Source of the DNA: Nitrosarchaeum sp.
Lineage (GTDB): Archaea > Thermoproteota > Nitrososphaeria > Nitrososphaerales > Nitrosopumilaceae
Reading direction: 5' to 3'
Length of the DNA: 32,000 nt
Assembly (NCBI GenBank): GCA_021414105.1
Contig: JAIOPB010000059.1
Location: 41,761 to 73,760, forward strand
Shown here: positions 12,946 to 32,000 of the stretch, piece by piece
Numbering within the stretch: the first letter of the stretch is position 1
Layout: each line of letters starts with the position of its first letter
Program-made: the position numbers and the translations under genes
Notes under the pieces: generated by a model
What the model saw: only the letters and a program-made list of their open reading frames with translations
The model's database searches: none
What the model was told of the DNA's origin: nothing

Positions 12946-13107
12946 TTTGAGGTAAATTATCTCTGTCTTGATTTAAAATCTTAAATTTTTATATAAAATC
13001 AAATATGTTAGGGGCTTATAATTTTGATTATTTGATCTTTAGCCTAATGATATCCAATAACTCCTCTTTTCGCTAATTTTTTAAGCAGTATCGTAAATCA
13101 GTCTTTT

Positions 13108-13575: not shown

Positions 13576-14387
13576 TTTAGTTTTGCTGAAGGATACGACC
13601 CTAGAATTTTCATAAATAGTGTTTCGTGATTAATTTTCTCTAACATCTCCGCAATCCTTGGATTTTTTGCATGACCTTCAAAATCTACGTAGAAATTATA
13701 CTCCCAAGTATTTGTCTTGGTTGGTCGTGACTCAATTTTAGTTAAATTGACCTTATAATTATGAAAATTCTCTATGATTCTGTGAAGAGAACCAGGTTCG
13801 TGCTTTATGGAAAAAATTATTGATGTCTTGTCTTTTCCAGTTTCTTCCTTGTTGTTTTTTGATAATATCAAAAATCTAGTGTAATTATTCAAATTATTTG
13901 CAATACCTTCTGATATTACAGGCATATTGTAAATCTTAGATGCATCCTTACTGGCAATACATGCTATGTTCTTTTTGTTTAATTCTTTGATAATCTTTAC
14001 ACTTCCCGCTGTGTCATATGTGGGAACCGTTTTCATGTTATGTTTTTCAATAAAGTTTCTGCACTGTCCTAATGCTTGTGGATGAGAATACACAGTATCT
14101 ATCTCTTCCAAAGTTTCCGTTCCTATCAAACAATGTTCAATTCTATGATAAATTTCACCTATGACATTAAGTGATGTTGAATACAACAAATCATAGCTCT
14201 CTCCAACACTGCCTTCCAATGAGTTTTCTACTGGCAAAATAGAATACTCTGTTTTGTCTAGTGTAGTATTTTCTAAAACTTCTGCAAAGGTTAGAAGAGG
14301 GACTGTCTGAATTTCTTTGTTAAAAAATGCTCTAGCTGCTGCCTCACTATATGCCCCTCGTTCACCTTGGAACGAAACACGTATCAT
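13572..14387 (-). CDS. pheA: Prephenate dehydratase with C-terminal ACT domain
   Basis: 271 aa with the FQGERGAYSE N-terminus, SHPQALGQC, and the ACT-domain motif TKIESRP. Confidence 0.9.
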   Translation of the reverse strand: MIRVSFQGERGAYSEAAARAFFNKEIQTVPLLTFAEVLENTTLDKTEYSILPVENSLEGSVGESYDLLYSTSLNVIGEIYHRIEHCLIGTETLEEIDTVYSHPQALGQCRNFIEKHNMKTVPTYDTAGSVKIIKELNKKNIACIASKDASKIYNMPVISEGIANNLNNYTRFLILSKNNKEETGKDKTSIIFSIKHEPGSLHRIIENFHNYKVNLTKIESRPTKTNTWEYNFYVDFEGHAKNPRIAEMLEKINHETLFMKILGSYPSAKLN

Positions 14388-14390
14388 TTT

Positions 14391-14942
14391 TTACTCTCTC
14401 AGCTTTACGAAATCACTGTTACCAAAATTTGATGAAAGTTTTCTTTCATCAATCCAAGCACATTCTGTACATTTTATGGCATCACGCATTTGAACTACTT
14501 TTCCACCACACTTTCTACATTTTGTAAATAATACACCCAAGTGTGGCTCCTCAATCGCTGCATGAATTGTGCCATTTAGGTGATTTAGAATCTTTAATGT
14601 AACAATATCATTTACCAAGGCCACATTCTTTTTTCTAAGATTTCTTGTTGAACAAACACATTCAACTTTTGATGTTGTTGGTTTGCCATTAATGTAATCA
14701 ATTGATACTGCTATCATAGAAGACATAACTGCAGCTACAGTTCCTATTATGATATCTCCGACTTTTGGAATGGATAACATCTTTGGATGCTTTATGTTTG
14801 CCATTCGTGTTTCTTTATTGAGATCTGTCTTACCTACAGTTGCTGCACGAACCATGTCTCCATCGTCAAAAGTGTTGTATCCTGCTTCATATTCCTCAAT
14901 TGATGCTATTTTATCTCCAGGCAATGCAGCAATTTCAGACAT
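14391..14942 (-). CDS. csl4: Exosome complex RNA-binding subunit Csl4
   Basis: 183 aa with an N-terminal domain, a central S1-like fold (GDIIIGTV) and a C-terminal zinc ribbon CRKCGG...CTEC. This is the Csl4 architecture. Confidence 0.8.
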   Translation of the reverse strand: MSEIAALPGDKIASIEEYEAGYNTFDDGDMVRAATVGKTDLNKETRMANIKHPKMLSIPKVGDIIIGTVAAVMSSMIAVSIDYINGKPTTSKVECVCSTRNLRKKNVALVNDIVTLKILNHLNGTIHAAIEEPHLGVLFTKCRKCGGKVVQMRDAIKCTECAWIDERKLSSNFGNSDFVKLRE

Positions 14943-14963
14943 GCTGTATTTTTTGGTGTTATG

Positions 14964-14971
14964 ATTATAAT
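14964..14971 (-). promoter_or_regulatory. TATA-like element ATTATAAT upstream of csl4
   Basis: Its centre is about 25 nt upstream of the csl4 ATG (14942), consistent with a leaderless transcript. Confidence 0.4.
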
Positions 14972-15001
14972 TGTTTGTGGTCTAAAGCATTCTTGACAAA
15001 T

Positions 15002-15008
15002 CATATAA
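15002..15008 (+). promoter_or_regulatory. TATA-like element CATATAA upstream of the MDR reductase gene
   Basis: Its centre is 26 nt upstream of ATG 15031, consistent with a leaderless transcript. Confidence 0.45.
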
Positions 15009-15030
15009 CCAGAAAAAATTCAAAACAATC

Positions 15031-16101
15031 ATGAAAGCTCTAGTGTATGATAACTATGCTATAGATGATGATTTTTCTAAAATTTTAAAAATTAAAGACA
15101 TTCCTGAACCTGAACCAAAACACAACGAAGTTATTTTCAAAGTAAAAAGTGCATCTCTAAATTATGATGATATTTGGGGAATGAGGGGAAAGCCTCTGGC
15201 TGTGCCATTACCTCACATATCAGGTACAGATGCTGCAGGTGAAGTAATCGCAATAGGTCAAGATGTAAAAAATATCAAAATTGGTGATAGAGTTGTCTCT
15301 CATGGAAACATGTCATGTAGAATATGTAAATCATGCACTAGTGGTAGAGAATATGATTGCAGACAGAGAAAAATTTGGGGATTTGAAACCGGTCCACTTT
15401 GGGGAGGATATTGTGAAATTACTCATTTGCCAGAAGTTAATGTCGTAAAAATTCCTGATAATGTTACCTATGATTCTGCAGCAGCTGCTTCAATGACTTT
15501 GTTGACATCATGGCACATGTTAGTTGGAAGAGCAAAGATTCAACCAGGACAACTAGTTTTGATTATGGGTGGCGGTTCTGGCGTTGGAAACTATGGAATT
15601 CAAATAGCTAAATTATTTGGTTGTACTGTAATTGCTACAGCTAGTCCCGATAAATTAGATAAATTATTAGAATTAGGAGCTGATTATGCAATAGATCATA
15701 GAAAAGAAGACTGGTATAAGGAAGTCCGTGATATCTCTAAAAAAATAACCAAACCTTTTGGAGATGTAATTGGAGTAGATGTAATTTTTGAGCACATTGG
15801 AGGTTCGCATTGGAATAAAGAATTGACTTTGTTAAAGTATGGTGCAACAATTGTTACAACTGGAGCAACAACTGGTTATGACGCTAAAACTGATTTACGC
15901 CATATTTTTTTCAAAGGTATCAATATTTTAGGCTCAACTCAAGGAACTAGGGCTGAGTTAGAGCAAGCTCTGTACTGGATGTCTCAAGGCAAAATTAAAT
16001 CTGTCATTGACTCTGTTTACTCTTTTGAGCAAGCAGCAGAAGCTCATACAAAGATGTTAACTGGAAAAGGATTATTTGGAAAAATCTTAATGAAGCCTTG
16101 A
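15031..16101 (+). CDS. Medium-chain dehydrogenase/reductase (MDR) superfamily protein, enoyl-thioester-reductase-like, NAD(P)-dependent
   Basis: 356 aa with a GroES-like N-domain, a structural-zinc lobe CRICKSCTSGREYDC and a Rossmann GGGSGVG. The classical catalytic-zinc positions read SLNYDD and SGTDAAG instead of Cys and GHE. Confidence 0.85.
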   Translation: MKALVYDNYAIDDDFSKILKIKDIPEPEPKHNEVIFKVKSASLNYDDIWGMRGKPLAVPLPHISGTDAAGEVIAIGQDVKNIKIGDRVVSHGNMSCRICKSCTSGREYDCRQRKIWGFETGPLWGGYCEITHLPEVNVVKIPDNVTYDSAAAASMTLLTSWHMLVGRAKIQPGQLVLIMGGGSGVGNYGIQIAKLFGCTVIATASPDKLDKLLELGADYAIDHRKEDWYKEVRDISKKITKPFGDVIGVDVIFEHIGGSHWNKELTLLKYGATIVTTGATTGYDAKTDLRHIFFKGINILGSTQGTRAELEQALYWMSQGKIKSVIDSVYSFEQAAEAHTKMLTGKGLFGKILMKP

Positions 16102-16111
16102 TGTAAAATTA

Positions 16112-16717
16112 ATGATGACTAGAAATCCTAAAACTGATTCTATTCTTGATGAAGCAAATAGATTATTTTTAAAAGGCAAATTACATGAAGCAATTATTTA
16201 TTATGATGAAATTCTACATGAAAATCCAAATCATATTGGTTCTCTTAACAACAAGGGATATGCACTAAATAAATTGAAAGATTATGATGGTGCCATACAA
16301 TGTTATGACAGTGCCTTGAAATTAGATTCTGGAGATCTTTCTGTTTTAGTAAACAAAATATCATCTTTGAGAAAAAAAGGTGAATTTACTGAGGCATTAA
16401 ATTATTGCAATACTATTTTGGAAAATAATTCAAAATATAACATTGTACTGTATCACAAAGAAAGAATCTTGTTTTCAATGGAACAATTTGAAGAATCTAT
16501 ACTTTGTTGCAATAAAATTTTAGATGACTATCCACGTAATGGCGATGTTCTTTTTGATAAATCTTGTAATCTTGCTATGCTTTCTAGAATAGATGATGCA
16601 CTTGATACGCTTGAAAATGCAATTTCACAAGGAATTCAATATAAAATCAAAGCAAAAAAAACTAAATCTTTTGAAAAACTAACAGATAATCAAAAATTTC
16701 AAAAACTAGTATCTTAA
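16112..16717 (+). CDS. Tetratricopeptide (TPR) repeat protein
   Basis: 201 aa with several 34-residue repeats of the A..YYD.AL...P.. / NKGYAL..L..Y..A type. Confidence 0.8.
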   Translation: MMTRNPKTDSILDEANRLFLKGKLHEAIIYYDEILHENPNHIGSLNNKGYALNKLKDYDGAIQCYDSALKLDSGDLSVLVNKISSLRKKGEFTEALNYCNTILENNSKYNIVLYHKERILFSMEQFEESILCCNKILDDYPRNGDVLFDKSCNLAMLSRIDDALDTLENAISQGIQYKIKAKKTKSFEKLTDNQKFQKLVS

Positions 16718-17709
16718 AGCCAGTGAGGAATTTCTAGATATCCTTCTATGCTTTCATGTCTTAATATTTTTAAAAGTGCATTTGCCTGAGGTGTAGAAAG
16801 AACTGGCTTGTCAAATTGATTGTCTGTAGAAATTCTGGGGCATGCTACTTGAATAAATGCGTCTATTCCTTTTAGATTTTTTAATCTCTCATTTGTGATG
16901 TCAGTTAAAGCAAATAACTGAACTGTCTTTCCTTCTTTTTCCAATTCTTTTTTAAATTTTAAAGCAAATACTTTGGATAGTTGCCCTTCTTTGAGTCCAA
17001 TAATTATTCCAAATGACTGTGCATCAGCTGCTTTGTAAATCGCAAGTGTAGCTTTCTTTTTTAATTTCTGAGCAAATTCTGTGACTTCTCTTACTTCATT
17101 AAAATAAGGATCTAAAACATATGTTGGCAAATTAGTTGAGAGTGCGATTCCAGCTGCATGAAAATTACTCTGTCCTAAAAAAACATAGGCATCAACTTTG
17201 TCTTTGAGTTCTGTTGCTGGATAAAACTCACAACCAAATACTTGACCATCATTTAGCTGTCCTTTCCCCTTGCCAATTTTTACCTCAATTCCACCATTAG
17301 TTAAAATTTCATTTACTTTATACATCTGATGCAAATGTTGGCTATCTGTAACTAGAGATATTTTCTTTCCTTTGAGAATATCAACACATTTTTTGGCGAC
17401 ACTATCAAATTCCACATCATCATAGGCATTAATCAGAATTAGATTTTTCTCAAATGATTCAGTGTTAATAGTATGTCCAATGTTGAATTGGATCTCTGCT
17501 CCTAATACTTTAGAGCCATTTGAATTAAGGTCACATGTTCCCCAAGTGGTATCAGCTAAAACATATGCAGGAATTCCAAATCTCTTTGTAATATTCATGG
17601 CAGTCTCTTGTACTTGAGGCAAGATTCCATCAGGACCATTCAGAGACACTGATACAGGTTTTTTTGATTCAATTTCTTTGAAGATTCTCTCTTCGTCTAT
17701 TACTATCAA
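16714..17709 (-). CDS. dph2: 2-(3-amino-3-carboxypropyl)histidine synthase (diphthamide biosynthesis, archaeal Dph2)
   Basis: 331 aa with three conserved cysteine contexts (WGTCD, FGCEF, QVACPRI) matching the Dph2 [4Fe-4S] ligands. The start codon is TTG at 17709. Confidence 0.85.
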   Translation of the reverse strand: MIVIDEERIFKEIESKKPVSVSLNGPDGILPQVQETAMNITKRFGIPAYVLADTTWGTCDLNSNGSKVLGAEIQFNIGHTINTESFEKNLILINAYDDVEFDSVAKKCVDILKGKKISLVTDSQHLHQMYKVNEILTNGGIEVKIGKGKGQLNDGQVFGCEFYPATELKDKVDAYVFLGQSNFHAAGIALSTNLPTYVLDPYFNEVREVTEFAQKLKKKATLAIYKAADAQSFGIIIGLKEGQLSKVFALKFKKELEKEGKTVQLFALTDITNERLKNLKGIDAFIQVACPRISTDNQFDKPVLSTPQANALLKILRHESIEGYLEIPHWL

Positions 17710-17792
17710 TTCAGCTAAAAATATAGCGTTATTAATTTAAACCAACTGTGTTATACAACAACTAAAAATGTCTGAAATTCTATAATCCATTT

Positions 17793-19121
17793 ATGACTGA
17801 TACACATATCCTGAATATTGGTTTTGATGATACAGATTCCCCAAAAGGAATGTGCACAACTTTTCTTGCTTACAAAATTGTTGATTGGCTAAAAAAACAA
17901 GATACTGAATTTCTTGACTTTCCCAAATTAATCCGATTCAATCCAAATATTCCTTGGAAAACACGAGGTAATGGGGCAGTTTCTCTGCGAATAAGAACAA
18001 AAAATCCATCAAAAATCAAAAACCAAATAAAAAATCTTGTCAAAAAATATTCTGATATAAAAAATGGGGCAAATCCAGGTCTGGTTTTCTATGAGAGTAA
18101 AGAAATTCCAGAACAATTTGCTAGATTCAGCAAACTAGCTTTATGGCAGCTAATAAACAGAAATCTTGCAAAAAAATTTGCTACAAAAAATAACATTGAA
18201 TTTTTTTACCAAGGAAATGGTCAAGGCCTTGTAGGTGCAATTGGTGCAATAGGTTATGATTTTAAAGATCATACATTGGAGCTATTAAGTTATAGAAAAA
18301 ATTCTAAATTTGGAAAAGCAAGAAAACTTTCTGCTAAAAGTGTAAAAACAATGCAAGAAAAAACATTGCCTTATACATTTAACAGCTTTGATAACAAAAA
18401 AGATAGAGTCTTAATTACTCCTCATGGTCCTGATCCTGTTTTTTATGGAGTACGTGGTGAAAATATAGATTCGTTACTACACGCAACAAAAATTTTGGAA
18501 ACTAGTGAAAAATTAGCAGGTTACATGATATTCAAATCTAATCAAGGTACAGGTGATCACTTAAAAAATGAATTTAATTCAACAAATATCAGACCTTATG
18601 CTTCAGGAAAAATTACTGGGATTATATCTGATGAACCAAAAATTGTAAAAGGTGGCCATGTTTTTTTCTCTATTCTTTCAGATGGATATGAATTACGATG
18701 TGCTGTTTACAAACCAACTGGGATGTCTTCTGTGGCATTAAGTTTGATTAAAGGAGACAAGGTTTGCATTGGCGGTGGTATTAGAAAAGCCTCAAAAAAC
18801 TATCCTAGAATTCTCAATCTTGAGTTTATCGATGTGATTAATCTTGAAAAAAATCTGATAAAATCTAATCCTGTATGTAAAAAATGTGATAAAAAAATGA
18901 AATCAAAAGGAAAAACCCAAGGATATCAATGTACAAAATGCGGTGAAAAATCAGCAAGCAAAGTCACTTTAGAAATACCTAGGAAAATCAAAAAACAATT
19001 GTACATTCCCAATATTTCTGCACACAGACATCTTAGCAGACCATTACAAAGAATTGGAAGAATTAACAAGGAATCAAAATTCGACGAATCGACTTCATGG
19101 TTTTGTGCATATGAAAACTAA
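17793..19121 (+). CDS. tiaS: tRNA(Ile2) 2-agmatinylcytidine synthetase TiaS
   Basis: 442 aa with the N-terminal IGFDDTDSPKGMCTT motif characteristic of TiaS, an OB-fold-length middle region and a C-terminal zinc ribbon CKKCDKK...CTKCG. Confidence 0.85.
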   Translation: MTDTHILNIGFDDTDSPKGMCTTFLAYKIVDWLKKQDTEFLDFPKLIRFNPNIPWKTRGNGAVSLRIRTKNPSKIKNQIKNLVKKYSDIKNGANPGLVFYESKEIPEQFARFSKLALWQLINRNLAKKFATKNNIEFFYQGNGQGLVGAIGAIGYDFKDHTLELLSYRKNSKFGKARKLSAKSVKTMQEKTLPYTFNSFDNKKDRVLITPHGPDPVFYGVRGENIDSLLHATKILETSEKLAGYMIFKSNQGTGDHLKNEFNSTNIRPYASGKITGIISDEPKIVKGGHVFFSILSDGYELRCAVYKPTGMSSVALSLIKGDKVCIGGGIRKASKNYPRILNLEFIDVINLEKNLIKSNPVCKKCDKKMKSKGKTQGYQCTKCGEKSASKVTLEIPRKIKKQLYIPNISAHRHLSRPLQRIGRINKESKFDESTSWFCAYEN

Positions 19122-21658: not shown

Positions 21659-21680
21659 ATAAAAAGTGAAAAAATCAGCA

Positions 21681-22658
21681 ATGTCTCAGGTAAAATTCGC
21701 TATACCAAAAGGCAGTCTTGAAGAGGCAACCTTCAAACTTCTTGAGAGATCATGGACTAAAGTAAATAGAAAAGACAGAACATATCGAGTGTATCTTGAT
21801 GATCCAAACATTGTTGTAAAAATGCTCAGACCACAAGAAATTCCAACACTAGTAGCTGAAGGATTGTATGATGTTGGTATAACTGGAAAGGACTGGGTTG
21901 GTGAAACTAAAGCAGATGTTGAAGCAATATTGGATTTAGAGTATGGAAAAATTCGACTAGTTGTTGCATTTCCTGACAAATATCACTACAAAAATCTAGA
22001 TGAAATGATAGCAGACTATGCTAAAAAGAAAAAAACACTTCGTATATCATCTGAGTATCTTACTACTGCATCAAAATTTCTAAAACAATGTAAATCTTAT
22101 AAAAAATATTTTGGCACAAAAGATCCATTAATTGTGACACCTTGGGTTAGACTTGGTACAAACAAAAGTGTTCAAATTCATTTATCGTTTGGTGCTACAG
22201 AAGCAAAACCCCCTGAAGATGTTGATGCAATAATGGATGTCACTGAGACTGGAACTACACTAAAACAAAATAAATTAAAAATAGTTGATGAGATTCTAAC
22301 GTCCACTGCACATTTGATTGTTAACAAAAAATCTTTACGGGATCCACAAAAACGTGAAAAAATATTTGATATTGTAACTTTAATGCGAGGTGCTGTACGT
22401 GGAAGAAAATATCTCCACATTTACCTTAATGTAGAAGAAAAGAATCTCAAAAAACTCCTAGAGCAGATACCTTCTCTTAAAAAACCAACAATAAGTCCAC
22501 TTAGCGAAAAAGGATGGTATGGAATAAACACAGTTATTCAAAAAGAAGACTTTCACAAACTAATTCCAAAACTAAGAAAAATTGCACAGGGATTGGTAGT
22601 TCATGAACCACGACAAATTCTCGAGCTAGAGGAGATTAAGCGTGATGAAGAAAATTGA
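21681..22658 (+). CDS. hisG: ATP phosphoribosyltransferase (long form with C-terminal regulatory domain)
   Basis: FAIPKGSLEE N-terminus and the DVTETGTTLKQNKL signature. The ORF track starts at GTG 21666, but that codon lies only about 11 nt from the TATA-like element, so ATG 21681 is preferred. Confidence 0.9.
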   Translation: MSQVKFAIPKGSLEEATFKLLERSWTKVNRKDRTYRVYLDDPNIVVKMLRPQEIPTLVAEGLYDVGITGKDWVGETKADVEAILDLEYGKIRLVVAFPDKYHYKNLDEMIADYAKKKKTLRISSEYLTTASKFLKQCKSYKKYFGTKDPLIVTPWVRLGTNKSVQIHLSFGATEAKPPEDVDAIMDVTETGTTLKQNKLKIVDEILTSTAHLIVNKKSLRDPQKREKIFDIVTLMRGAVRGRKYLHIYLNVEEKNLKKLLEQIPSLKKPTISPLSEKGWYGINTVIQKEDFHKLIPKLRKIAQGLVVHEPRQILELEEIKRDEEN

Positions 22659-23929
22659 TGAAAATAATTCAAGTAGCTAATGTTGAAAAATTTGTAGCTC
22701 AAGTATTACCAAAACAGCCACAAAAAAACAAGTCTATAGTGGAATCTATTTTAAAAAATGTACAAAAAAATGGAGATTCCACCATAAAAAAATATGAGAA
22801 TAAATTCAGTGGTGCTAAAATCACTTCATTACGTTTATCAAAAACTGAAATAAAAGATGCATTTTCTAAAGTATCTAAAAATAAAATAGATGCAATACAA
22901 TTATCTAAATCAAGACTGGAGAAAACTGAGTCTGCTGTAAAATCCATCTTAAAAAACAAGTCTATTAACACAGACGGAATTAAAATTTCAAAGAAATTTG
23001 TACCGATCCAAAGTGTGGGATGTTACATTCCAGGTGGTTTAGCAAGATATCCGAGCTCTGTTATAATGTCTGTAATTCCTGCAAAAATTGCAGGAGTCAA
23101 GAGAATAGTAGTTGTATCTCCTCCTAATTCTGATGGAAAAATTGATCCATTAACTATTGTAGCTGCAGATCTATGTGGTGCAAATGAAATTTACAGAGTT
23201 GGCGGTGCTCAAGCAATTGCCGCATTATCTTTTGGCACAAAATCAATATCTAAAGTAGATAAAATAGTTGGACCCGGTGGTCCATTTGTAACACTTGCCA
23301 AGTCAATGGTTAGCGAGAGAACAGCAATTGATATGCTTGCGGGTCCTACCGAATTAGGAATTATTGCAGATGCAACTGCAAATCCAAGATATATTGCACT
23401 GGATCTCATCTCACAATCAGAGCATAGCAATGATACTTTTTGTTATTTGATAACAAATTCAGAAAAACTTGCAAAATCAGTAGATAAAATTATCACAGAT
23501 TTATCTAAGAAAATAAAGAGAAATAATTTTGTAAAAACCAGTCTTAAAGAAAATGGCTTTATTGCAATATGCAAAAATAATTCTGATATGATAAAACTTG
23601 CAAATGAATTGGCTCCGGAACACATACAAATTATGACAAAAAATCCCAATGCTTTTGCATCAAAAATCACTTCTTCTGGATTAATACTGCTAGGAAATGA
23701 CACTCCATCATCTGCAAGTGACTATCTTTTAGGCTCAAATCATATTTTGCCCACAAATGGATTTGGTAAAACAAGAGGATCGCTTTCAGTTTTGGATTTT
23801 ATCAAGGTAGACACTCAGATATCTGCTTCAAAGTCAGTTTTATCAAAAATTTCAAAACATATGAAAATATTTACCGAAGCAGAAGGACTTCCAAATCACT
23901 ATGAAGCAGTACGAGGTAGAATACAATGA
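22658..23929 (+). CDS. hisD: Histidinol dehydrogenase
   Basis: GGAQAIAA, GPGGPFV, SQSEHS and APEHIQI motifs. ATG 22658 overlaps the hisG TGA (TGATG). TTG 22655 is the alternative start. Confidence 0.95.
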   Translation: MKIIQVANVEKFVAQVLPKQPQKNKSIVESILKNVQKNGDSTIKKYENKFSGAKITSLRLSKTEIKDAFSKVSKNKIDAIQLSKSRLEKTESAVKSILKNKSINTDGIKISKKFVPIQSVGCYIPGGLARYPSSVIMSVIPAKIAGVKRIVVVSPPNSDGKIDPLTIVAADLCGANEIYRVGGAQAIAALSFGTKSISKVDKIVGPGGPFVTLAKSMVSERTAIDMLAGPTELGIIADATANPRYIALDLISQSEHSNDTFCYLITNSEKLAKSVDKIITDLSKKIKRNNFVKTSLKENGFIAICKNNSDMIKLANELAPEHIQIMTKNPNAFASKITSSGLILLGNDTPSSASDYLLGSNHILPTNGFGKTRGSLSVLDFIKVDTQISASKSVLSKISKHMKIFTEAEGLPNHYEAVRGRIQ

Positions 23930-24996
23930 AAAAAGACTGGCTTGACAAAAAAATTAAAGAATTTTCTTCTATTGGAGGATATCAAAAACCAGAGCTACAT
24001 CCTGACGCACTTAAACTTGATTCTAATGAAAACTATGTTATCTCTAAACAACTCCAACAAGATCTAATTACTAATGCCAAAAAAAATTGTGATGTAAGAG
24101 AATATCCTTTGGGCGGAGTAGAACGTTTGATCAATCAGCTATCGAAATTTCTTAAAGTACACCCTTCTATGATCGGAGTTGGAAATGGCTCTGATCAAAT
24201 ACTGGATTTAATACTTTCAAATTTTGCCTCAAAGCAAACCCAAGTTCTTACGTCAAATCCCACATTTGGATTTTTTGAAGAAAGATGTAAACTGTACTCT
24301 ATTCCTGTTACTGCAATTCCTTTTTCAAATGATATGACACTAGATGTCAAAGAATTTCTCAAAGTATCTAAAAACGCTGATATCTTGTATCTTGATTCTC
24401 CAAACAATCCAACTGGATTTCAGTTCCAAAAAAATGATTTACAAAAATTAGTAAAATCCTTTAATGGCTTAATAATAATCGATGAAGCATACGGTGAATT
24501 TGGCGATTTTTCTTTATCTAATATGGTAAAATCCCAAGAAAATCTAATTGTTGTACAAACACTCTCAAAATCATTTGGTTTAGCTGGTTTAAGATTAGGA
24601 TATTTTATTGCAAACAAAAAATTTACAGACGCTTTTAATCATGTCTTACAATATCCATATCCAGTTAGTATCCTTACAATTGAATCTGCAATTTTAGCAT
24701 TGGAGCAATCTGCTCAAATGAAAGATGCCGTCCAAATAATTAAAGAAGAGCGAAAAAGAATAATTGAAAACCTTAGAAAATATGATGCCTTTGAAGTCTT
24801 TGATTCCAAGGCTAATTTTGTACTATTTGATGCCCATGGCTCTCACAAAAGAGTCTATGATGCCCTTGCAGAACAAGGAATATCGATTAGAAAATTAGGA
24901 AAAATTGGAAAACATGATGGCTGCCTTAGAGTTACAGTTGGAACTAAGGAAATGAACTCTAAATTTTTACTTGCAATTCGTGATTTGTTAGGATAA
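23926..24996 (+). CDS. hisC: Histidinol-phosphate aminotransferase
   Basis: 356 aa with LDSNEN, PNNPTG and the PLP-lysine motif LSKSFGLAGLRLGY. ATGA overlap with hisD. Confidence 0.95.
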   Translation: MKKDWLDKKIKEFSSIGGYQKPELHPDALKLDSNENYVISKQLQQDLITNAKKNCDVREYPLGGVERLINQLSKFLKVHPSMIGVGNGSDQILDLILSNFASKQTQVLTSNPTFGFFEERCKLYSIPVTAIPFSNDMTLDVKEFLKVSKNADILYLDSPNNPTGFQFQKNDLQKLVKSFNGLIIIDEAYGEFGDFSLSNMVKSQENLIVVQTLSKSFGLAGLRLGYFIANKKFTDAFNHVLQYPYPVSILTIESAILALEQSAQMKDAVQIIKEERKRIIENLRKYDAFEVFDSKANFVLFDAHGSHKRVYDALAEQGISIRKLGKIGKHDGCLRVTVGTKEMNSKFLLAIRDLLG

Positions 24997-25967
24997 TGTT
25001 AACAAAAAAACAATCCGGAATCTATATGGATGATTCTATTTCAAATGATTTGTTATCCATAGATGGAATAGTCTTTGATTGTGATGGTGTTTTAATCGAT
25101 ATTACAAAATCTTATGATCTTGCAATAGATAAAACTGTGAAATATGTTTTAGAAAATTTTTCTCAAATTACTGACTGTATTGAAATTGATTCAAAAATTA
25201 TTGATGGATTCAAATCTAGTGGTGGATTTAATGATGAAGTTGATTTAACATATGTAGCAATTCTTTCTTTAATAGCTGCAAAAAAATTAAACAAAAATCA
25301 ACATGAGTTTATTTTTGATGTAATATCTAATGCTGATTCTTCTGGAATTTCATCTGTAGAAAAATATCTTGAGAAACTTGTAGATATAAGTGATATTAAA
25401 AACAAACTATCATATCCTGGAACTCATAATGATAATTCATTATACAAAATATTTGATCAAATATTTTATGGACCAGAACTCTATAGTAAACTCTTCAAAC
25501 AATCATCTCAATTTTCAGAATATGGTTTGATAGAAAATGATATTCTTATTGTGAATAAATCTCTAATTGAAAAACTAGAAAAAAGATTTACTTCAAAACT
25601 TTCAATTGTATCTGGACGAGGAAAAGAATCAATTCGATATTCTCTCAAACTATTATTGGATAAATTTGATCTGAAAAACTCTGCATTCTTAGAAGATGAA
25701 CCAAGAGAACTTGCAAAACCCAATCCTGAATCTTTAGTTAGTTCAATTAATGGCATGAATTGTAGTCATTGTATTTACGTTGGAGACTCGATGGAGGATT
25801 TTATCATGGCTAAAAAGGCCACAGAGCAAGGCTGCAAAACCATCTTTTGTGGAATTATAGGAACCAGCAAAAACCCACAAGACAAACTGGAATTATTTCA
25901 GCGCAATGGGGCTTTGTTGGTATTGGAATCTATCAATTTACTTCCGAAGGTATTAAATTTAGAATAA
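24996..25967 (+). CDS. HAD-superfamily hydrolase with unusually large cap insertion; candidate histidinol-phosphate phosphatase
   Basis: All four HAD motifs are present: [37 protein letters not shown]. About 170 aa separate motifs I and II. The start ATG overlaps the hisC TAA by 1 nt (TAATG). The phosphatase role is inferred from operon position only. Confidence 0.85.
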
Positions 25968-25993
25968 GACAAAGCACAGCTCCTGTGAAAAAT

Positions 25994-26581
25994 ATGACGC
26001 CCAGAAAAAGCTCTGTAAACCGTAGTACAAAAGAAACCAGCGTATCTGTATCTGTTAATTTGGATGGAGCTGGAAAAACCACAATTCAAACTGGAATTAA
26101 TTTTCTTGATCATCTAATCACATCCTTTGGAAAACACGGGATGATGGATCTTAAGGTTAGTGCAAAATCAAATGATAAAATCACACACCACTTGATTGAA
26201 GATACTGCAATTACTATAGGCTTGGCCATTGACAAAGCTCTGGGAACAAGACGCGGCATTACTAGATTTAGTTATGCATCTGTACCAATGGATGAATCTC
26301 TAGCTGAGGCTTCAATTGATCTAGTAAAAAGACCATTTTGGAAACTAGTCTTGTCAATTAAACGAAATACAATTGAAGACATCTCAAAAGAAGATTTGGA
26401 ACATTTTTTCCAATCGCTTCTTCAAAACCTAAACAGCTGTATTCATCTTACTGTAAAGTATGGAGACAATGATCATCACAAAGTAGAAGCTGCCATAAAA
26501 TCACTAGCTGTTGCATTTAGAGAAGCATCTTCATACGACAAAAAACAAAAAGGCATTCCTAGTACAAAAGGTTCAATGTAA
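25994..26581 (+). CDS. hisB: Imidazoleglycerol-phosphate dehydratase
   Basis: [27 protein letters not shown] and the NDHHKVEA metal motifs. I chose ATG 25994. The ORF-track start at 25847 would add 49 non-homologous residues overlapping the HAD gene. Confidence 0.93.
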
Positions 26582-27190
26582 ATGGTACATCTTGCAATAT
26601 TTGATTATGGTGCTGGAAATATTTTCAGCCTAAAAAACTCACTTGAAAAAACAGGAGCTACTGTAGATGTTATCACTAATTTTGACAAGCCAAATATTTA
26701 TTCTGGGCTCTTACTTCCAGGAGTTGGGAATTTTGATCCTGCAATCAAAAGCATACGTAAATCATCAAAAACTAACTTTAATGATTATGTCAAAGATAGC
26801 ACTCCTGTTTTAGGAATTTGTCTTGGTATGGAAATGTTTTTTGAGAAAAGTGAAGAAGGAAATGAAAAGGGATTGGGTGTAATTAATGGCGATGTAATTA
26901 TTCTTCCATCATCAATGAAAGTTCCACATATGGGATGGAATAATTTAGAAATTAAAAAATCTGGTACAATACTTGAAGGAGTAAATGACAATGCTTGGGT
27001 TTATTTTGTACACTCGTACAGTGTAAAACCTACAAACAATGATATAATTACAGCAGAATCTGATTATGGAATTAAAGTACCTGCAGTTGTTGAGCAAGGT
27101 AACTTTTTTGGAACACAGTTTCATCCAGAAAAATCTGGCAAAGTAGGAAAAATCATGATTCAAAACTTTCTAGATGTGTGTAAAAAATGA
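26582..27190 (+). CDS. hisH: Imidazole glycerol phosphate synthase, glutamine amidotransferase subunit
   Basis: Catalytic GICLGMEMF and FGTQFHPEKS motifs. It starts immediately after the hisB TAA. Confidence 0.95.
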   Translation: MVHLAIFDYGAGNIFSLKNSLEKTGATVDVITNFDKPNIYSGLLLPGVGNFDPAIKSIRKSSKTNFNDYVKDSTPVLGICLGMEMFFEKSEEGNEKGLGVINGDVIILPSSMKVPHMGWNNLEIKKSGTILEGVNDNAWVYFVHSYSVKPTNNDIITAESDYGIKVPAVVEQGNFFGTQFHPEKSGKVGKIMIQNFLDVCKK

Positions 27191-27894
27191 AAGTTATTCC
27201 TGCAATTGATCTGATGAATGGTCAAGTAGTACGACTCTACAAAGGTGATCCTAACCAGAAAACTGTGTACAGTGATAATCCCATTGAAGTAGCAAAAAAA
27301 TGGGAAGCAAATGGTGCTGATATGCTTCACTTGGTAGATCTAGATGCAACTTTGGGTAGGGGCTCAAATCTTTTGATAATTAAAAAAATTCTTGAACAGA
27401 TCTCAATCCCAATTCAAGTCGCTGGTGGACTAAGAGATGAATCAATAATAACTGATGTTTCAAAAATTTCTAATAGGGTTGTTTTAGGTACATTTGCATT
27501 CAAAGACAAATCTACACTAAAAAAATTATTGTCTAATTTGGGACCTGAAAAAATTGTAATCTCTGTTGATCATATAGATGGTGAGATAGTGATACATGGA
27601 TGGCAAAAACAAACTGGCATTAAATTAATTGACGCTATGCAAGAATTTCTTGCAATGGGGTTTTCTGAATTTTTATTAACAAATGTTAGTCGTGATGGAA
27701 CGTTGCAAGGACCTGATTTGGAATTTTTAGAGCAAGCATGTCAATTAGATAAATCACATGTGATTGCAAGCGGAGGAATTTCAAATATAAAAGACATACA
27801 AGATGTAAAACAAAAAAATGCATTTGGAGTAATACTGGGTAAAGCACTTTATGAGAATAAAATTTCAATTGAGGAGGCAAAACAAATAGCATGA
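27187..27894 (+). CDS. hisA: ProFAR isomerase (1-(5-phosphoribosyl)-5-[(5-phosphoribosylamino)methylideneamino]imidazole-4-carboxamide isomerase)
   Basis: [20 protein letters not shown]-terminus, VAGGLR and ASGGIS motifs. ATGA overlap with hisH. Confidence 0.95.
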
Positions 27895-28694
27895 CTCTTA
27901 CAAAAAGAATAATTCCATGCCTTGATGTAAAAAATGGACGAGTAGTAAAGGGTCTACATTTTGAATCAATTAAAGATGCAGGAGACCCTGTAGAACTGGC
28001 TGAAAAATATAGTAATGAAGGTGCAGATGAACTTGTTTTTTTGGATATTACTGCATCTGATGAACAAAGAAAAACAATCAAGGATTTGGTTAGAAAAGTT
28101 GCAACAGTAATTGACATTCCATTTACAGTTGGTGGTGGTGTAAAATCATTGGAAGATGCAAGAAATATTTTACTTAATGGTGCTGACAAAGTAGGAATCA
28201 ACACAGGTGCAATAAAAAATCCTCAAGTTATTACTGAACTAATGGAATTATTTGGAAGACAATGTATTGTAATTGCAATTGATGCGAAAAGGAATTTTGA
28301 TATTCAAAAAGACAAAAACATTTTTTCTGAGAATGGAAAACAATTCTGGTTTGAAGTCTTCATTTATGGTGGAAAAGAAGCAACTGGCATTGATGTCATT
28401 GAATGGGCAAAAAAAGCTGAAAAACTGGGTGCAGGAGAAATACTTCTCACCAGCATTGATAAAGATGGTACAAAAGATGGATATGATATTTTATTAAATA
28501 AAGAAATTGCTAATTCTGTATCTATTCCAGTTATTGCATCTGGTGGATGTGGCAAACCCGATGATATGGTTGATGTCTTTAAGAAATCAAACGTTGATGC
28601 TGCTCTGGCAGCTTCTATATTTCACTATCAAACTCATGGTGTGAATGGAGTAAAGATGTATCTTAAAGACAAACAAATTCCTGTAAGATTATAA
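27891..28694 (+). CDS. hisF: Imidazole glycerol phosphate synthase, cyclase subunit
   Basis: [22 protein letters not shown] and ASGGCG motifs. ATGA overlap with hisA. Confidence 0.97.
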
Positions 28695-28717
28695 GCTATA
28701 CTTTGTGATTTAAAATA

Positions 28718-29047
28718 ATGAAAAAATCAATCGCTGATATTGATTTTGCAAAAAGTGACGGACTTGTTCCAGTAATTGTTCAAGACGCAAATACAAAAGA
28801 TGTGTTAACCCTAGCTTACTCTAACAAAGAATCACTTGAATTAACTAAAAAAACTGGTAACTCTTGGTTTTGGAGTCGTTCTAGAAACAAACTTTGGATG
28901 AAAGGTGAAGAATCTGGTAACACACAAAAAGTAAAAGAAATTCTTGTTGATTGTGATTCTGATGCAATTATTTATCTTGTAGAACCATCAGGACCAGCTT
29001 GTCATACTGGCGAGAAAGTTTGCTTTCATAATAACTTGGACAAATAA
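28718..29047 (+). CDS. hisI: Phosphoribosyl-AMP cyclohydrolase (monofunctional, no HisE domain)
   Basis: 109 aa with [31 protein letters not shown] and [12 protein letters not shown]. Confidence 0.93.
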
Positions 29048-29048
29048 T

Positions 29049-29621
29049 CTAACAAACAGGTTCGATATCTGTTCCTGGAACAACATCTTTTGTTATCTCA
29101 AAATTTAGATTTGTATAATCTGTCCCTCTGAAAACCATTACCCACTTTCCTGTTATGTCATCAACTGAACATATTCCTCTAATTTTTGAAATTTGAGGAT
29201 TTAGATAATAATTGAATACTGGTTTTGTAGCTCCATCAAATGGAATGGTCAAATATACTGAGTAATGTGTATCATTTAGTGGTCTCATAACTGCAATCTG
29301 ACCTTTTTCGTTTGCATGCAATCCGTTCATTATTAGGAAAATCTTCTCACCTATGGCATATTGGCTTCGATCAATTTGAAACGGTCCTGAGCTAATCCAC
29401 TCTCTTTCTTTTGGTGAATACTCATTTTCCAAATTAATTTTTTCAATTTCATTTAATTTTTCTTGAATCTTTGTATTCTCCGTTTCTGGTTTTACTTCCT
29501 TATCTAATGTATCTTCAACTTCTATCACATCTGATTTCGTACTAGATATCAAAACTACAGCTAAAATAATTACAAAAATACTGACTCCTACTGCAATACC
29601 TATGCCCAGTCCTTTTTTCAT
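29049..29621 (-). CDS. Hypothetical membrane-anchored or secreted protein
   Basis: 190 aa with an N-terminal KKGLGIGIAVGVSIFVIILAVVLI helix, an acidic/lysine-rich linker and a C-terminal domain of about 120 aa containing two Cys. I recognised no family. Confidence 0.55.
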   Translation of the reverse strand: MKKGLGIGIAVGVSIFVIILAVVLISSTKSDVIEVEDTLDKEVKPETENTKIQEKLNEIEKINLENEYSPKEREWISSGPFQIDRSQYAIGEKIFLIMNGLHANEKGQIAVMRPLNDTHYSVYLTIPFDGATKPVFNYYLNPQISKIRGICSVDDITGKWVMVFRGTDYTNLNFEITKDVVPGTDIEPVC

Positions 29622-29666
29622 GTATTTTATTTTCTAAAAATATCTAAAAACCTTACTCATAATTGG

Positions 29667-29689
29667 AAAATCTATAAAACATAGATTTT
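29667..29689. repeat. Perfect 9-bp inverted repeat AAAATCTAT-(AAAAC)-ATAGATTTT in a divergent promoter region
   Basis: Read directly from the sequence: arms at 29667-29675 and 29681-29689, with a 5-nt spacer. Confidence 0.9.
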
Positions 29690-29834
29690 TTCTAAATTTT
29701 TCTTCAAACTATGCCTCTACAATTTTTTTATAAATATTAGATAATTTTCATTATATTTTTTAGTCAGTAAAGTTAAGTAATAGTTAACTTGATATTAGGA
29801 TTTTTTATGTACAGTCTGAAAGGAGAAACTAATC

Positions 29835-31049
29835 TTGGCTAGAACATCACTACAATGCAGAGAATGTAAAAAAGAATATGACACTGCTTTCAAGTATATC
29901 TGCGATGACTGTTTTGGACCTCTTGATGTAAAATATGACTTTCCCACAATTGCCAAGAATACATTTACAAACCGTGAACACACCTATTGGAGATATTTTG
30001 AATTATTGCCAATAGAAAACAAATCCAATATTGTCAGTATTGGTGCAGGAATGACACCTCTTATCAAAGCTGATAATCTTGGAAAAAAATTAGGATTAAA
30101 CAATCTTTACATCAAAAATGATTCTGTAAACCCGACATTTTCATTTAAAGACAGACCAGCAGGTGTTGCAATATCAAAGGCAAAGGAATTTGGATTATCT
30201 GCAGTAGGTTGTGCATCTACTGGCAATTTAGCATCTGCAACTGCAGCACATGCAGCTAAAGCTGGATTGCCATGTCATGTATTTGCACCAAGTAACATTG
30301 AGATGGCAAAAATCGCACAGGCATTATCATACGGCGCAAATTACATTGCAGTAGATGGAACATATGATGATGCAAATAGAATAGCTGCACAGATTGGTGA
30401 TAGTAAAGGAATTGGAATTGTAAATATTAACATGCGTTCTCATTATGTAGAAGGCTCCAAAACACTTGCATACGAAGTTGCAGAACAACTTGACTGGCAA
30501 GTTCCTGATCAACTTATAGTTCCTGTAGGAAGTGGCGCAATGCTAAATGCAATTTGCAAAGGATTTGAAGAATTACAAACAGTTTCATTATTAAATAATG
30601 TTTCAAATATGCACATGATAGCAGCACAACCACATGGATGCGCACCTATAGTTGATGCATTTAAGAAAAACAGCAAAGAAGTGATTCCAGTGGAGCATCC
30701 TGATACCATTGCAAAGAGTTTGGCAATAGGTGATCCCGGAGATGGTAGATATGTACTAAAAAGATTAGCACAATACAATGGATTTGCAGAAGAATGCAAC
30801 AATAAAGAAATTTTAGATGCAATATTGCTTTTGGCAAAAACTGAAGGAATATTCACAGAGCCTGCAGGCGGTGTCTCTGTTGCTGTACTTCAAAAGATGG
30901 TAGAGCAGGGAAAAATTGACAAAAATGACTCTGTAGTGTGCTATGTTACTGGAAATGGATTAAAAGCAACTGAGGCAATAATGGAAATTTTGCCAAAACC
31001 AAAAGTAATGAAGGCAAATATCAAAGAAATATCGGCGGTAGTAAACTAG
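29835..31049 (+). CDS. thrC: Threonine synthase family PLP enzyme with N-terminal zinc ribbon
   Basis: 404 aa with CRECKKEY...CDDCFGPLD, the PLP-lysine motif NPTFSFKDRPAG, GCASTGN, and the fold-type II C-terminal half. A TTG start is forced by the zinc ribbon at residue 8, and AAAGGAG lies 9 nt upstream. The gene symbol reflects the family only (see findings). Confidence 0.85.
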   Translation: MARTSLQCRECKKEYDTAFKYICDDCFGPLDVKYDFPTIAKNTFTNREHTYWRYFELLPIENKSNIVSIGAGMTPLIKADNLGKKLGLNNLYIKNDSVNPTFSFKDRPAGVAISKAKEFGLSAVGCASTGNLASATAAHAAKAGLPCHVFAPSNIEMAKIAQALSYGANYIAVDGTYDDANRIAAQIGDSKGIGIVNINMRSHYVEGSKTLAYEVAEQLDWQVPDQLIVPVGSGAMLNAICKGFEELQTVSLLNNVSNMHMIAAQPHGCAPIVDAFKKNSKEVIPVEHPDTIAKSLAIGDPGDGRYVLKRLAQYNGFAEECNNKEILDAILLLAKTEGIFTEPAGGVSVAVLQKMVEQGKIDKNDSVVCYVTGNGLKATEAIMEILPKPKVMKANIKEISAVVN

Positions 31050-31050
31050 A

Positions 31051-32000
31051 ATGGCAAACATCACATTTACAATTCCATCAGTACTAAATCAAGGAGGTGG
31101 AGAGAAAAAAACAGAGATCTCAGCTGATTCTCTAACTAGTGCGTTTACAAAAATATCTGAAATTATGGGTGATGACTTTAAGAGACGAGTCTTAGAAGGC
31201 AATGGAACCCCACGCTCTTTGATTAATATTTACATTAATGGAAAAAATGCAAAATTCTCTGATGGAATGAACACTACTCTAAATGATGGAGATGAGGTGT
31301 ATATTCTACCTGCAGTAGCTGGAGGCTCTGAACTGTCTGCAAAAGAACTAGATAGATTTTCAAGACAAGTAATGCTAGAAGAAATTGGCTATACTGGGCA
31401 ACTAAAACTAAAAAATTCTAAAGTGTGTGTTGTTGGCACTGGTGGTCTGGGAAATCCGATTATATCCAGATTAGCTGCAATGGGTGTTGGTACTTTACGA
31501 ATTGTTGATAGAGATGTAATAGAATTATCCAATTTACATCGTCAAACAATGTTTGATGAATCAGATGTTGGCCAAGTAAAAGTAGAAGTTGCTGCAAAAA
31601 AATTAAAAAAATTAAATTCTGATTGTAAAATAGAAGCCTTGGCTATTTCAGTAAATGATTACACTGCACTTGAAGTGATTGAAGGATGTGATGTTGTAAT
31701 TGATGCACTTGATAGTGTTAATGCAAGATATGCACTAAACAAAGCATGTGTTAAATTTGGAATTCCATTTGTTACCGGTGCTGCAGTTGGAGTATCAGGA
31801 CAAGCATTTACAGTTCTGCCAAAAGAATCTGCATGCTATTATTGCATGTTTCCTGAACTAAACGAAGATACAATGCCGACTTGCAGCATTGAAGGAGTGC
31901 ATCCATCAATACTTTCTATTGTTGGAGGAATTGAAGTATCAGAAGCTGTTAAAATTATCACTGGAAAAAAACCTAGTCTATCCCAAAGAATTCTTCACAT
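31051..32000 (+). CDS. In-frame fusion of a CysO/MoaD-like diglycine beta-grasp domain (aa 1-92) to a MoeB/ThiF/UBA-type E1 adenylyltransferase; 3' end beyond the window
   Basis: I translated this by hand. ATG 31051 opens 316 complete codons with no stop before the window end, which is why it is missing from the ORF track. Residues 1-92 end DGDEVYILPAVAGG. The E1 motifs LDRFSRQ, VVGTGGLGN, IVDRD, LSNLHRQ and CYYC follow. Confidence 0.85.
   Translation, partial: MANITFTIPSVLNQGGGEKKTEISADSLTSAFTKISEIMGDDFKRRVLEGNGTPRSLINIYINGKNAKFSDGMNTTLNDGDEVYILPAVAGGSELSAKELDRFSRQVMLEEIGYTGQLKLKNSKVCVVGTGGLGNPIISRLAAMGVGTLRIVDRDVIELSNLHRQTMFDESDVGQVKVEVAAKKLKKLNSDCKIEALAISVNDYTALEVIEGCDVVIDALDSVNARYALNKACVKFGIPFVTGAAVGVSGQAFTVLPKESACYYCMFPELNEDTMPTCSIEGVHPSILSIVGGIEVSEAVKIITGKKPSLSQRILH

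Follow-up and report, generated by a model that had tools for sequence, protein, structure and literature searches.

We analysed a stretch of 32,000 nucleotides from Nitrosarchaeum sp. (GenBank assembly GCA_021414105.1, contig JAIOPB010000059.1, positions 41,761 to 73,760 of the forward strand), referred to below as the window. Its 3′ end carries two adjacent genes, one encoding a pyridoxal 5′-phosphate (PLP) enzyme of the ThrC family and the other a CysO-like sulfur carrier fused to an E1 adenylating enzyme. Comparison with related loci suggests that the two genes probably form an archaeal version of the MetM/MetO-type route from O-phosphohomoserine to homocysteine, in which carrier and E1 form a single protein. 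This reading is supported by comparison, not by experiment. The module is not categorically new: the fusion and the raw adjacency of the two genes have already been published, though not interpreted together. The features discussed below are as follows.

29622..29834, + strand: AT-rich intergenic region 5′ of the operon, with AGGAG 11 nt ahead of the TTG start
29835..31049, + strand: gene of the ThrC-family PLP enzyme (TTG start, 404 aa; PALP domain, 255 bits), a putative MetM-type O-phosphohomoserine-dependent homocysteine synthase
29856..29912, + strand: N-terminal CxxC...CxxC zinc-ribbon motif (C8/C11/C23/C26), read from the translation
30147..30161, + strand: PLP-lysine motif K105-D-R-P-A, which is K-D-R-G-M in canonical ThrC (alignments to 2zsj, 6cgq, 2d1f and 1uim)
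30216..30230, + strand: S128-T-G-N-L132 loop, which is S-T-G-N-T in canonical ThrC (T88 in Thermus numbering); the Leu is invariant in the clade described below
30423..30542, + strand: remodelled substrate-phosphate pocket, N197 to M236 (residue mapping to Thermus ThrC)
31047..31053, + strand: stop/start junction TAG-A-ATG with a 1-nt gap (TAG 31047-31049, spacer 31050, ATG 31051)
31051..31326, + strand: CysO/MetO-like beta-grasp sulfur-carrier domain of 92 aa, ending in ILPAVAGG (ThiS Pfam, 35 bits)
31327..32000, + strand: linker SELSAKELDRFSRQ, then an adenylating E1 domain of the ThiF/MoeB type, truncated at the window end (ThiF Pfam, 238 bits)
31435-31452, + strand: E1 ATP loop GTGGLG (sequence reading)
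31882-31884, + strand: E1 C278, the equivalent of ThiF Cys184 (alignment to E. coli ThiF and MoeB)

The 404-aa protein is a fold-type II PLP enzyme of the ThrC family: it contains a PALP domain, and its best PDB matches are ThrC structures, with 37-40% identity. The retrieved public records of the enzyme that bear a name call it 'threonine synthase'. It shares 42-51% identity with bacterial members of the clade described below and 36-41% with canonical ThrCs; these ranges are near each other, so that identity alone could not have decided the placement of the enzyme. C8, C11 and C23 of the zinc ribbon are invariant in the family alignment, but such a CxxC ribbon is also common in ThrC-like families outside the clade and is thus not discriminating. 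In a motif survey of 1.84 billion cluster representatives, the nearest relatives of the window enzyme were found to combine FKDR[P/V/A] with STGNL, whereas the solved ThrCs and their close kin combine FKDRGM with STGNT. An earlier reading of the sequence by a model (the first-pass annotation) had given the motif after the PLP lysine as KDRG in canonical ThrC, against KDRPA in the window, and alignment with the Aquifex, Bacillus, M. tuberculosis and Thermus ThrCs agrees with this. The hint is real yet weak as evidence; clade members read KDR[P/V/A].

The position of the enzyme within the family was studied in a curated neighbor-joining (NJ) tree (46 sequences, 399 well-occupied columns, 200 bootstraps), which included named clade members from the genome scan described below, five canonical ThrCs and 15 other ThrC-like families. 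The clade was separated from the rest in 199 of 200 bootstraps and contained the window enzyme along with all five genes linked to S-adenosylmethionine (SAM) riboswitches. The canonical ThrCs formed another group (177/200), with the window enzyme outside it, and the thaumarchaeal members of the clade formed a subclade (192/200). Besides, we selected 21 discriminating columns that are invariant in the five canonical ThrCs and different in 12 clade members; at these columns the window enzyme is clade-like in 18 cases and canonical in two. Nesting inside bona fide threonine synthases, which the first-pass annotation had named as an outcome that would speak against its proposal, was thus not seen.

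Mapping onto Thermus ThrC revealed which parts of the active site have changed. K61 and N154 of the Thermus enzyme correspond to K105 and N197 of the window enzyme, while T88 is replaced by L132, S155 by N199, N157 by R201, R160 by Y204, Q164 by S208, N188 by S233, G190 by A235 and N191 by M236; the window enzyme also has a 1-aa insert, I198. The canonical set of FKDRGM, STGNT, N154-S155, R160 and N188 was not found in it, and FKDRPA, STGNL, S155N with the insert, R160Y and N188S stand in its place. Five of the Thermus residues (T88, N154, S155, R160 and N188) are those that we take to hold the substrate phosphate, and their numbering agrees with the residues found at these positions. In ThrC, the retained phosphate steers water onto C-beta, a mechanism called 'product-assisted catalysis'. 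A pocket that does not hold phosphate would be expected where the C-terminus of a protein must enter as the gamma-nucleophile. About a dozen active-site substitutions, which form a testable set, may turn beta-hydroxylation into gamma-thiolation on a ThrC scaffold.

The second gene follows the first almost without a gap (GTA GTA AAC TAG A ATG GCA AAC), so the stop at 31047-31049 and the next ATG at 31051 given in the first-pass annotation were read correctly. The 1-nt gap is consistent with co-transcription and translational coupling, and equally tight enzyme/carrier junctions were found in two relatives (L001 and L002) and in thaumarchaeal loci. The translation of the 92-aa carrier domain is MANITFTIPSVL...GDEVYILPAVAGG, and the frame runs on without a stop into the ThiF-family domain up to the window end. 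Its top match among solved structures is CysO of M. tuberculosis (3dwg_C; E 1e-12, 37% identity), aligned end to end including ILPAVAGG, followed by the CysO-type carrier 4n6e_B of Amycolatopsis; the likeness to CysO that had been noted for the two termini thus extends over the full length. The free-standing carriers of Nitrosocaldus and Bathyarchaeum share 55% and 42% identity with the domain, respectively. With its beta-grasp ThiS-family fold and terminal Gly-Gly the domain belongs with ThiS, MoaD and CysO. The primary product, however, has no free C-terminal glycine, as the GG precedes SELS... and the E1 domain. Because the GG is buried inside the fusion, cleavage after it has to be postulated to free the carrier.

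The identification of the following part as a MoeB/ThiF-type adenylating domain, also made in the first pass, is borne out by its ThiF Pfam score and by the alignment to E. coli ThiF and MoeB. It has the features of MoeB/ThiF/MoeZ E1 enzymes, namely the ATP loop, the conserved cysteine and Zn-binding CxxC pairs (ThiF, 238-244 bits); the motif C262xxC265 lies within the window, and the second CxxC was seen in full-length relatives. In these relatives the carrier-E1 protein has a length of 443-446 aa and ends with a domain of ~100 aa that has no Pfam match and was labelled TBP-like (PMC2948915). A C-terminal rhodanese domain of the MoeZ/Uba4 type was not detected by Pfam in the full-length relatives.

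To describe the neighbourhood of the enzyme gene in other organisms, we scanned one genome per species and obtained 80 loci, 77 of them with at least 350 nt downstream of this gene. Of the 77 loci, 75 have a CysO-like carrier gene on the same strand less than 1 kb downstream, and such a gene follows the enzyme in each of the 40 thaumarchaeal loci whose sequence extends beyond it. The adjacency, whose conservation in relatives had been proposed as a check, is therefore kept. The carrier-linked loci span Thaumarchaeota, Bathyarchaeia, cyanobacteria, Nitrospirae, Chloroflexota and Actinomycetes, in total more than 10 phyla, and have no other common synteny. Control loci of canonical ThrC contained thrB, hom and ask and no carrier.

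Two further kinds of linkage concern the product of the pathway. Five bacterial lineages have the SAM riboswitch RF00162 immediately 5′ of their clade members, at 68-78 bits against a threshold of 44 bits (Micromonosporaceae, 77; the bacterium L007, 71.5; Binatia, 77.6; Chloroflexota, 75.8; a metagenome-assembled genome (MAG) of Actinomycetes, 68.3 bits). Among archaea, a Thermoplasmatota locus has the order enzyme, carrier, hom, and a euryarchaeal MAG has the order enzyme, carrier, hom, thrB. The first-pass annotation had left open whether the genes serve a route to homocysteine or to cysteine. Homocysteine is favoured because SAM riboswitches precede the bacterial members and hom/thrB are linked in these two archaeal loci, and cysteine is disfavoured. 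The more general proposal of a thiocarboxylate-dependent role for the ThrC-like enzyme is supported by the clade, the active site, the riboswitches and the carrier linkage.

Some loci contain additional genes of sulfur metabolism. In the uncultured archaeon L060 (4214-8274), ATP sulfurylase and a DsrE-like sulfur-relay gene precede enzyme, carrier and E1, which hints at a sulfur path to the carrier in that organism. A Nitrospiraceae locus (L081, 4151-9146) has the order CysM-like PALP gene, E1, enzyme, carrier, second E1 and Prok-JAB (66 bits), and may represent a joint cysteine and homocysteine thiocarboxylate module with two E1s. Clusters resembling it were also observed in L072 and L085. 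In Bathyarchaeum (L052, 4765-5766, minus strand), a divergent CysM/CysK-like PALP gene with the motif SVKDRPAV adjoins the MetM-like operon.

In Thaumarchaeota the carrier is fused to the E1-TBP protein in 37 of 40 loci, which belong to Nitrosopumilales, Nitrosotalea, Nitrosotenuis and Nitrososphaerales. The junction ILPAVAGG|[S/A]-E-L is invariant in the fused thaumarchaeal loci, and the GG is invariant in 40 fused proteins. A separate carrier gene followed by a separate E1-TBP gene was found in Nitrosocaldus, two other Nitrososphaerota MAGs, Bathyarchaeum and related Thermoproteota; since the carrier genes are separate in deeper lineages, the fusion seems to have arisen from an operon of three genes. 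An Elusimicrobiota locus contains an independent carrier-E1 fusion. Free-standing carriers end in GG in Bathyarchaeum (L052), L050, L060 and bacterial loci, while others have a tail after the GG (1 aa in L051 and L053, 15 aa in Nitrosocaldus [L049]; extensions also in L004 and L007). Apparent insertions of ~2.5 kb between the enzyme and carrier-E1 genes in four loci proved to be artefacts of open reading frame (ORF) starts, and the genes there are adjacent.

The fusion itself has been known for some time. The 'Ubl-E1-TBP' architecture (Ubl, ubiquitin-like) was catalogued in Thaumarchaeota by Makarova and Koonin (2010), and in their supplementary neighbourhood table the 443-aa fusion of N. maritimus stands beside a 404-aa protein of arCOG01434 (ThrC) (PMC2948915). 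A survey of 2024 reported a 'MoaD-MoeB fusion' in 61 of 98 thaumarchaeal assemblies and placed it under molybdopterin synthesis (PMC11237513). Neither paper ties the fusion to the adjacent ThrC-like gene. According to Table S1 of PMC2948915, N. maritimus and C. symbiosum have one E1 and no MoaA, MoaB, MoaC, MoaE, MoeA, MobA or MobB; they have two JAB proteases each, and five and three rhodanese-family proteins, respectively. Service of the carrier/E1 to molybdopterin only, another outcome that had been named as speaking against the proposal, is hence excluded in these two ammonia oxidisers, which lack genes of molybdenum cofactor biosynthesis; MoaA, MoaC, MoaE and MoeA genes were not found in the window either. 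With no such pathway, the neighbouring enzyme becomes the obvious client of the fusion. An additional role in tRNA thiolation is conceivable because the fusion is the sole E1.

On the enzyme side, MetM, the homocysteine synthase in a thiocarboxylate pathway reported from S. albulus in 2024, was recently described as homologous to ThrC and frequently misannotated under that name (GapMind 2026 preprint). A Microcystis member of this lineage, with 51.6% identity to S. albulus MetM, adjoins a MetO-like gene, and in vitro it converted O-phosphohomoserine mainly to 2-oxobutanoate, with weak formation of threonine (PMC12172450). The 2-oxobutanoate is the side reaction expected of a gamma-replacement enzyme that lacks its nucleophile, although the authors of that work interpret it differently. 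JAMM processing of carriers extended past the GG is established in related systems (GapMind 2026 preprint; PMC11237513).

These data allow a sequence of reactions to be proposed. The precursor of 443-446 aa (carrier, E1 and TBP-like domain) would be cut after AVAGG, probably by a JAMM/JAB protease encoded elsewhere in the genome, to give a 92-aa carrier with a free Gly-Gly. By homology, the E1 would adenylate the terminal glycine, and a persulfide donor, probably a rhodanese protein of the genome, would turn the adenylate into a thiocarboxylate. The ThrC-like enzyme is then predicted to eliminate phosphate from O-phosphohomoserine, so that the carrier thiocarboxylate could attack C-gamma; unlike in ThrC, the phosphate would not be kept to direct water onto C-beta. 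This step is suggested because the phosphate pocket is remodelled and because of the characterised bacterial system. Finally, by analogy with CysO and Mec, an S-to-N acyl shift and a JAMM hydrolase would release homocysteine and regenerate the carrier.

Other explanations of the gene pair have to be weighed against this scheme. The pair could consist of an ordinary threonine synthase and an unrelated Ubl-E1 of general purpose (for tRNA thiolation or protein modification, SAMP/UbaA-like), with the adjacency being inherited synteny. The his-operon synteny around the gene pair is likewise conserved in Thaumarchaeota, the fused protein is the only E1 of N. maritimus and may have other clients (PMC2948915), and the window enzyme passes the cut-offs of both NCBIfam threonine synthase equivalogs (NF006050, 312 against 303; TIGR00260, 297 against 167). 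However, these cut-offs are not discriminating. TIGR00260 is also passed by the riboswitch-linked MetM-like proteins of bacteria (202-277; their NF006050 scores of 259-291 lie below 303), and NF006050 by most of the non-canonical families tested, so that family assignment by hidden Markov model (HMM) was rejected as a discriminator. Together with the clade placement and the active-site signature, the association of enzyme and carrier over more than 10 phyla that share no other synteny, and canonical ThrC loci without a carrier, make this explanation very unlikely. Still lower, and extremely improbable in our view, is a thiocarboxylate-dependent synthase of cysteine or another thio-amino acid, using, for example, O-phosphoserine as M. 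tuberculosis CysM/CysO does. The carrier is indeed most similar to CysO, and KDRPA also occurs in the CysM/CysK-like gene beside the Bathyarchaeum operon, but the enzyme belongs to the ThrC family and not to CysK/CysM (only 47 bits with TIGR01136). The bacterial members stand under SAM riboswitches rather than cysteine-linked signals, the linked hom and thrB make O-phosphohomoserine, and where a cysteine-type enzyme is wanted the cluster contains a separate CysM-like gene.

A third explanation, which we consider unlikely, assumes a dual-function branch point: the enzyme would be the sole ThrC homologue of ammonia oxidisers, making threonine unless the thiocarboxylated carrier is bound and homocysteine if it is, so that sulfur supply would partition O-phosphohomoserine. 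This explanation agrees with several facts, some of which also weigh against a dedicated MetM/MetO-type function. Judged by HMM scores the window enzyme is the most ThrC-like member of its clade (TIGR00260, 297 versus 202-277), and the cyanobacterial relative forms some threonine in vitro (PMC12172450). For the ancestor of ammonia oxidisers, a study of thaumarchaeal evolution lists the family of this gene, arCOG01434, as an acquired 'threonine synthase' (PMC7603488), and no second thaumarchaeal thrC turned up in searches that were far from exhaustive; if ammonia oxidisers have no second canonical thrC, the enzyme must also make threonine. On the other hand, the residues presumed to hold the phosphate are replaced throughout the clade, the window enzyme included. 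Streptomyces and some cyanobacteria hold a separate canonical ThrC besides the clade member (GapMind 2026 preprint; PMC12172450), and Bathyarchaeia own canonical ThrC operons, where a related genus-level signature also bears the clade operon. Some other points count against the homocysteine route too. The functional meaning of the pocket substitutions leans on the ThrC literature, the function of every archaeal clade member is assigned by comparison, and orthology to S. albulus MetM is suggested by a published identity figure and the shared riboswitch/carrier context. An earlier broad NJ tree of 137 sequences also grouped the window enzyme with its FKDR[P/V/A]/STGNL relatives but recovered the exact clade in 33 of 100 bootstraps, probably because of fragments and rogue taxa. 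No thaumarchaeal locus has a JAMM gene within 6 kb, nor does the window contain one, and the archaeal loci show no riboswitch or other methionine-linked signal. Even so, we regard the MetM/MetO-type route as the probable function of the pair.

The question of a second thrC was studied in several ways. No second ThrC-like ORF was found in the window, in 45 thaumarchaeal loci or in all 89 loci scanned, a result that refers to these loci. Of ~30 representative ThrC-like clusters, four bore an organism name (Thermoplasmatota archaeon, Euryarchaeota archaeon, Micromonosporaceae and Bacillota), and none of these was thaumarchaeal. In a homologue search with the canonical archaeal ThrC P0231, all names obtained were of Bathyarchaeia, and a metagenome pattern scan for AT-rich canonical ThrCs gave 120 loci, none of them attributable to Thaumarchaeota. 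Several candidates were rejected: the AT-rich marine canonical ThrC P0199 proved bacterial, as did L120 and L137, the best tetranucleotide matches to Nitrosopumilaceae, and the his genes of the AT-rich archaeal L197 are only 40-47% identical to thaumarchaeal ones. Tetranucleotide similarity alone cannot separate AT-rich taxa. In Bathyarchaeia, canonical ThrC is encoded in thrB-thrC-hom-ask operons, and a 2.2-Mb contig with such an operon has the same G+C content (GC) as a Bathyarchaeum genome with the carrier-linked operon, with a tetranucleotide correlation of 0.89; this is a hint that canonical ThrC and the clade operon coexist in Bathyarchaeia. In a search for Streptomyces MetM with a Micromonosporaceae homologue, the best 120 matches were all from Micromonosporaceae.

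In the course of these searches we observed other ThrC-like proteins. Ten zinc-ribbon families without the canonical STGNT/KDRGM (among P0134-P0154, P0170 and P0193) mostly pass NF006050 (301-372 bits against 303), with P0193 just under the cut-off; the name 'threonine synthase' attached to this model has probably been over-propagated across functionally different enzymes. One family of ~615 aa (P0148 and P0152) has a C-terminal LeuA allosteric/dimerisation domain. Another, of ~495 aa (P0142 and P0168), ends in a PadR DNA-binding domain and has lost the PLP lysine by replacement (F-I/L/V-DRG), which suggests ligand-sensing regulators derived from ThrC. The top match of the window enzyme, P0001, has 466 aa and only 74% BLAST identity to it, yet with 953 bits in HMMER it outscores full-length orthologues that are 94% identical; a partly duplicated gene or a chimeric assembly may account for this.

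The window has a GC of 33%. Its final 2.36 kb shares 95.6% DNA identity with a Nitrosarchaeum sp. MAG, with a 99% identical ThrC-like protein. No riboswitch was detected in the intergenic region 29622..29834, nor any Rfam match at the gathering threshold anywhere in the window. Just 5′ of the ThrC-like gene lies hisI (28718-29047), the last gene of the his operon (21666-29047). hisI has the same position in 30 loci of Thaumarchaeota, among them Nitrososphaerales and Nitrosocaldus, while hisIE of Bathyarchaeum is convergent and lies downstream of E1; this neighbourhood is probably inherited synteny of unusual stability. Only in Nitrosopumilales (16 loci) are hisI and the ThrC-like gene separated by a 190-aa ORF (29049-29621 in the window, minus strand), which lacks a Pfam match and has a membrane anchor at its N-terminus.

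The region 3′ of E1 is variable. In L001, as in several Nitrosopumilaceae, the operon is followed by a 1733-aa ORF without a significant Pfam match (12763-17964), and in L002 sulfotransferase genes and an IS66-like fragment occupy the same place. Elsewhere in the window, ORFs of 114-197 aa without a Pfam match (1408-1752, 8553-9146, 12370-12945 and 13108-13575) lie among the ordinary housekeeping genes cobS, adenine deaminase, thermosome, ROK kinase, guaA, MptE, folP, IMPDH, pheA, Dph2 and TiaS.

The proposed function implies re-annotation of a gene pair that is conserved over ammonia-oxidising archaea and many bacterial phyla, and it would assign a concrete client to the Ubl-E1-TBP fusion long known from Thaumarchaeota, in organisms without a molybdopterin pathway. 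In oceans and soils, few microbes are as abundant as ammonia-oxidising archaea, which grow without added amino acids. If the MetM/MetO-type reading is true, their assimilation of sulfur into methionine passes through a protein thiocarboxylate, and metabolic reconstructions and auxotrophy predictions for these organisms need correcting; a similar correction would reach many cyanobacteria, Nitrospira, Chloroflexota and Bathyarchaeia. If instead the enzyme has a dual function, one enzyme and one self-activating pro-carrier would set the threonine/methionine split in some of the most abundant cells of the ocean.

Comparison of the module with known systems revealed both common and distinct features. 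The Ubl-E1-TBP or 'MoaD-MoeB fusion' of Thaumarchaeota is the same gene, discussed in the respective papers in connection with molybdopterin or tRNA modification (PMC2948915; PMC11237513). HcyBio (COG1900/PF01837) with the NIL-ferredoxin serves the same end, homocysteine in archaea without classical pathways, by means of unrelated proteins; such genes are not in the window and were seen in a Bathyarchaeia-like contig (L091, 13737-16363; HcyBio with CBS, and a NIL/4Fe-4S ferredoxin gene), where they adjoin a canonical thrB-thrC-hom-ask operon. The canonical ThrCs of Aquifex (2zsj), Bacillus (6cgq), M. tuberculosis (2d1f) and Thermus (1uim) share with the window enzyme the fold, the PLP lysine, 37-40% identity and probably the substrate. 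It differs from them in FKDRP for FKDRG, STGNL for STGNT, R160Y, N188S, S155N and a new Arg at N157, belongs to a separate clade and has a sulfur-carrier gene downstream.

In Wolinella succinogenes, HcyS/HcyF/HcyD/MetY make homocysteine via a protein thiocarboxylate, and the carrier needs JAMM processing; the PLP enzyme there is MetY, of fold type I and acting on O-acetylhomoserine, and not a ThrC homologue as in the window. The CysM/CysO/Mec/MoeZ system of M. tuberculosis follows the same logic of E1 activation, capture by a PLP enzyme and JAMM release, and CysO is 37% identical to the window carrier, with an identical ILPAVAGG tail. Unlike in that system, the PLP partner in the window is of the ThrC and not the CysM family, the carrier is not free-standing, and the likely substrate is O-phosphohomoserine instead of O-phosphoserine.

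The closest counterpart is MetM/MetO of Streptomyces albulus (with MoeZ and Mec), for which O-phosphohomoserine-dependent homocysteine synthesis was reportedly described by Hasebe et al. in 2024. In contrast to it, the window carrier is fused to an E1 and a TBP-like domain, the E1 is without a rhodanese domain, no JAMM gene or riboswitch is nearby and the host is an archaeon. The window enzyme is 43-50% identical to the actinobacterial riboswitch-linked members of the clade. Both systems have a ThrC-homologous PLP enzyme beside a CysO-like carrier of ~90 aa, the need for an E1 and a JAMM protease and the misannotation of the enzyme as threonine synthase would likewise be common to both, and bacterial relatives in the clade of the window enzyme are under SAM-riboswitch control.

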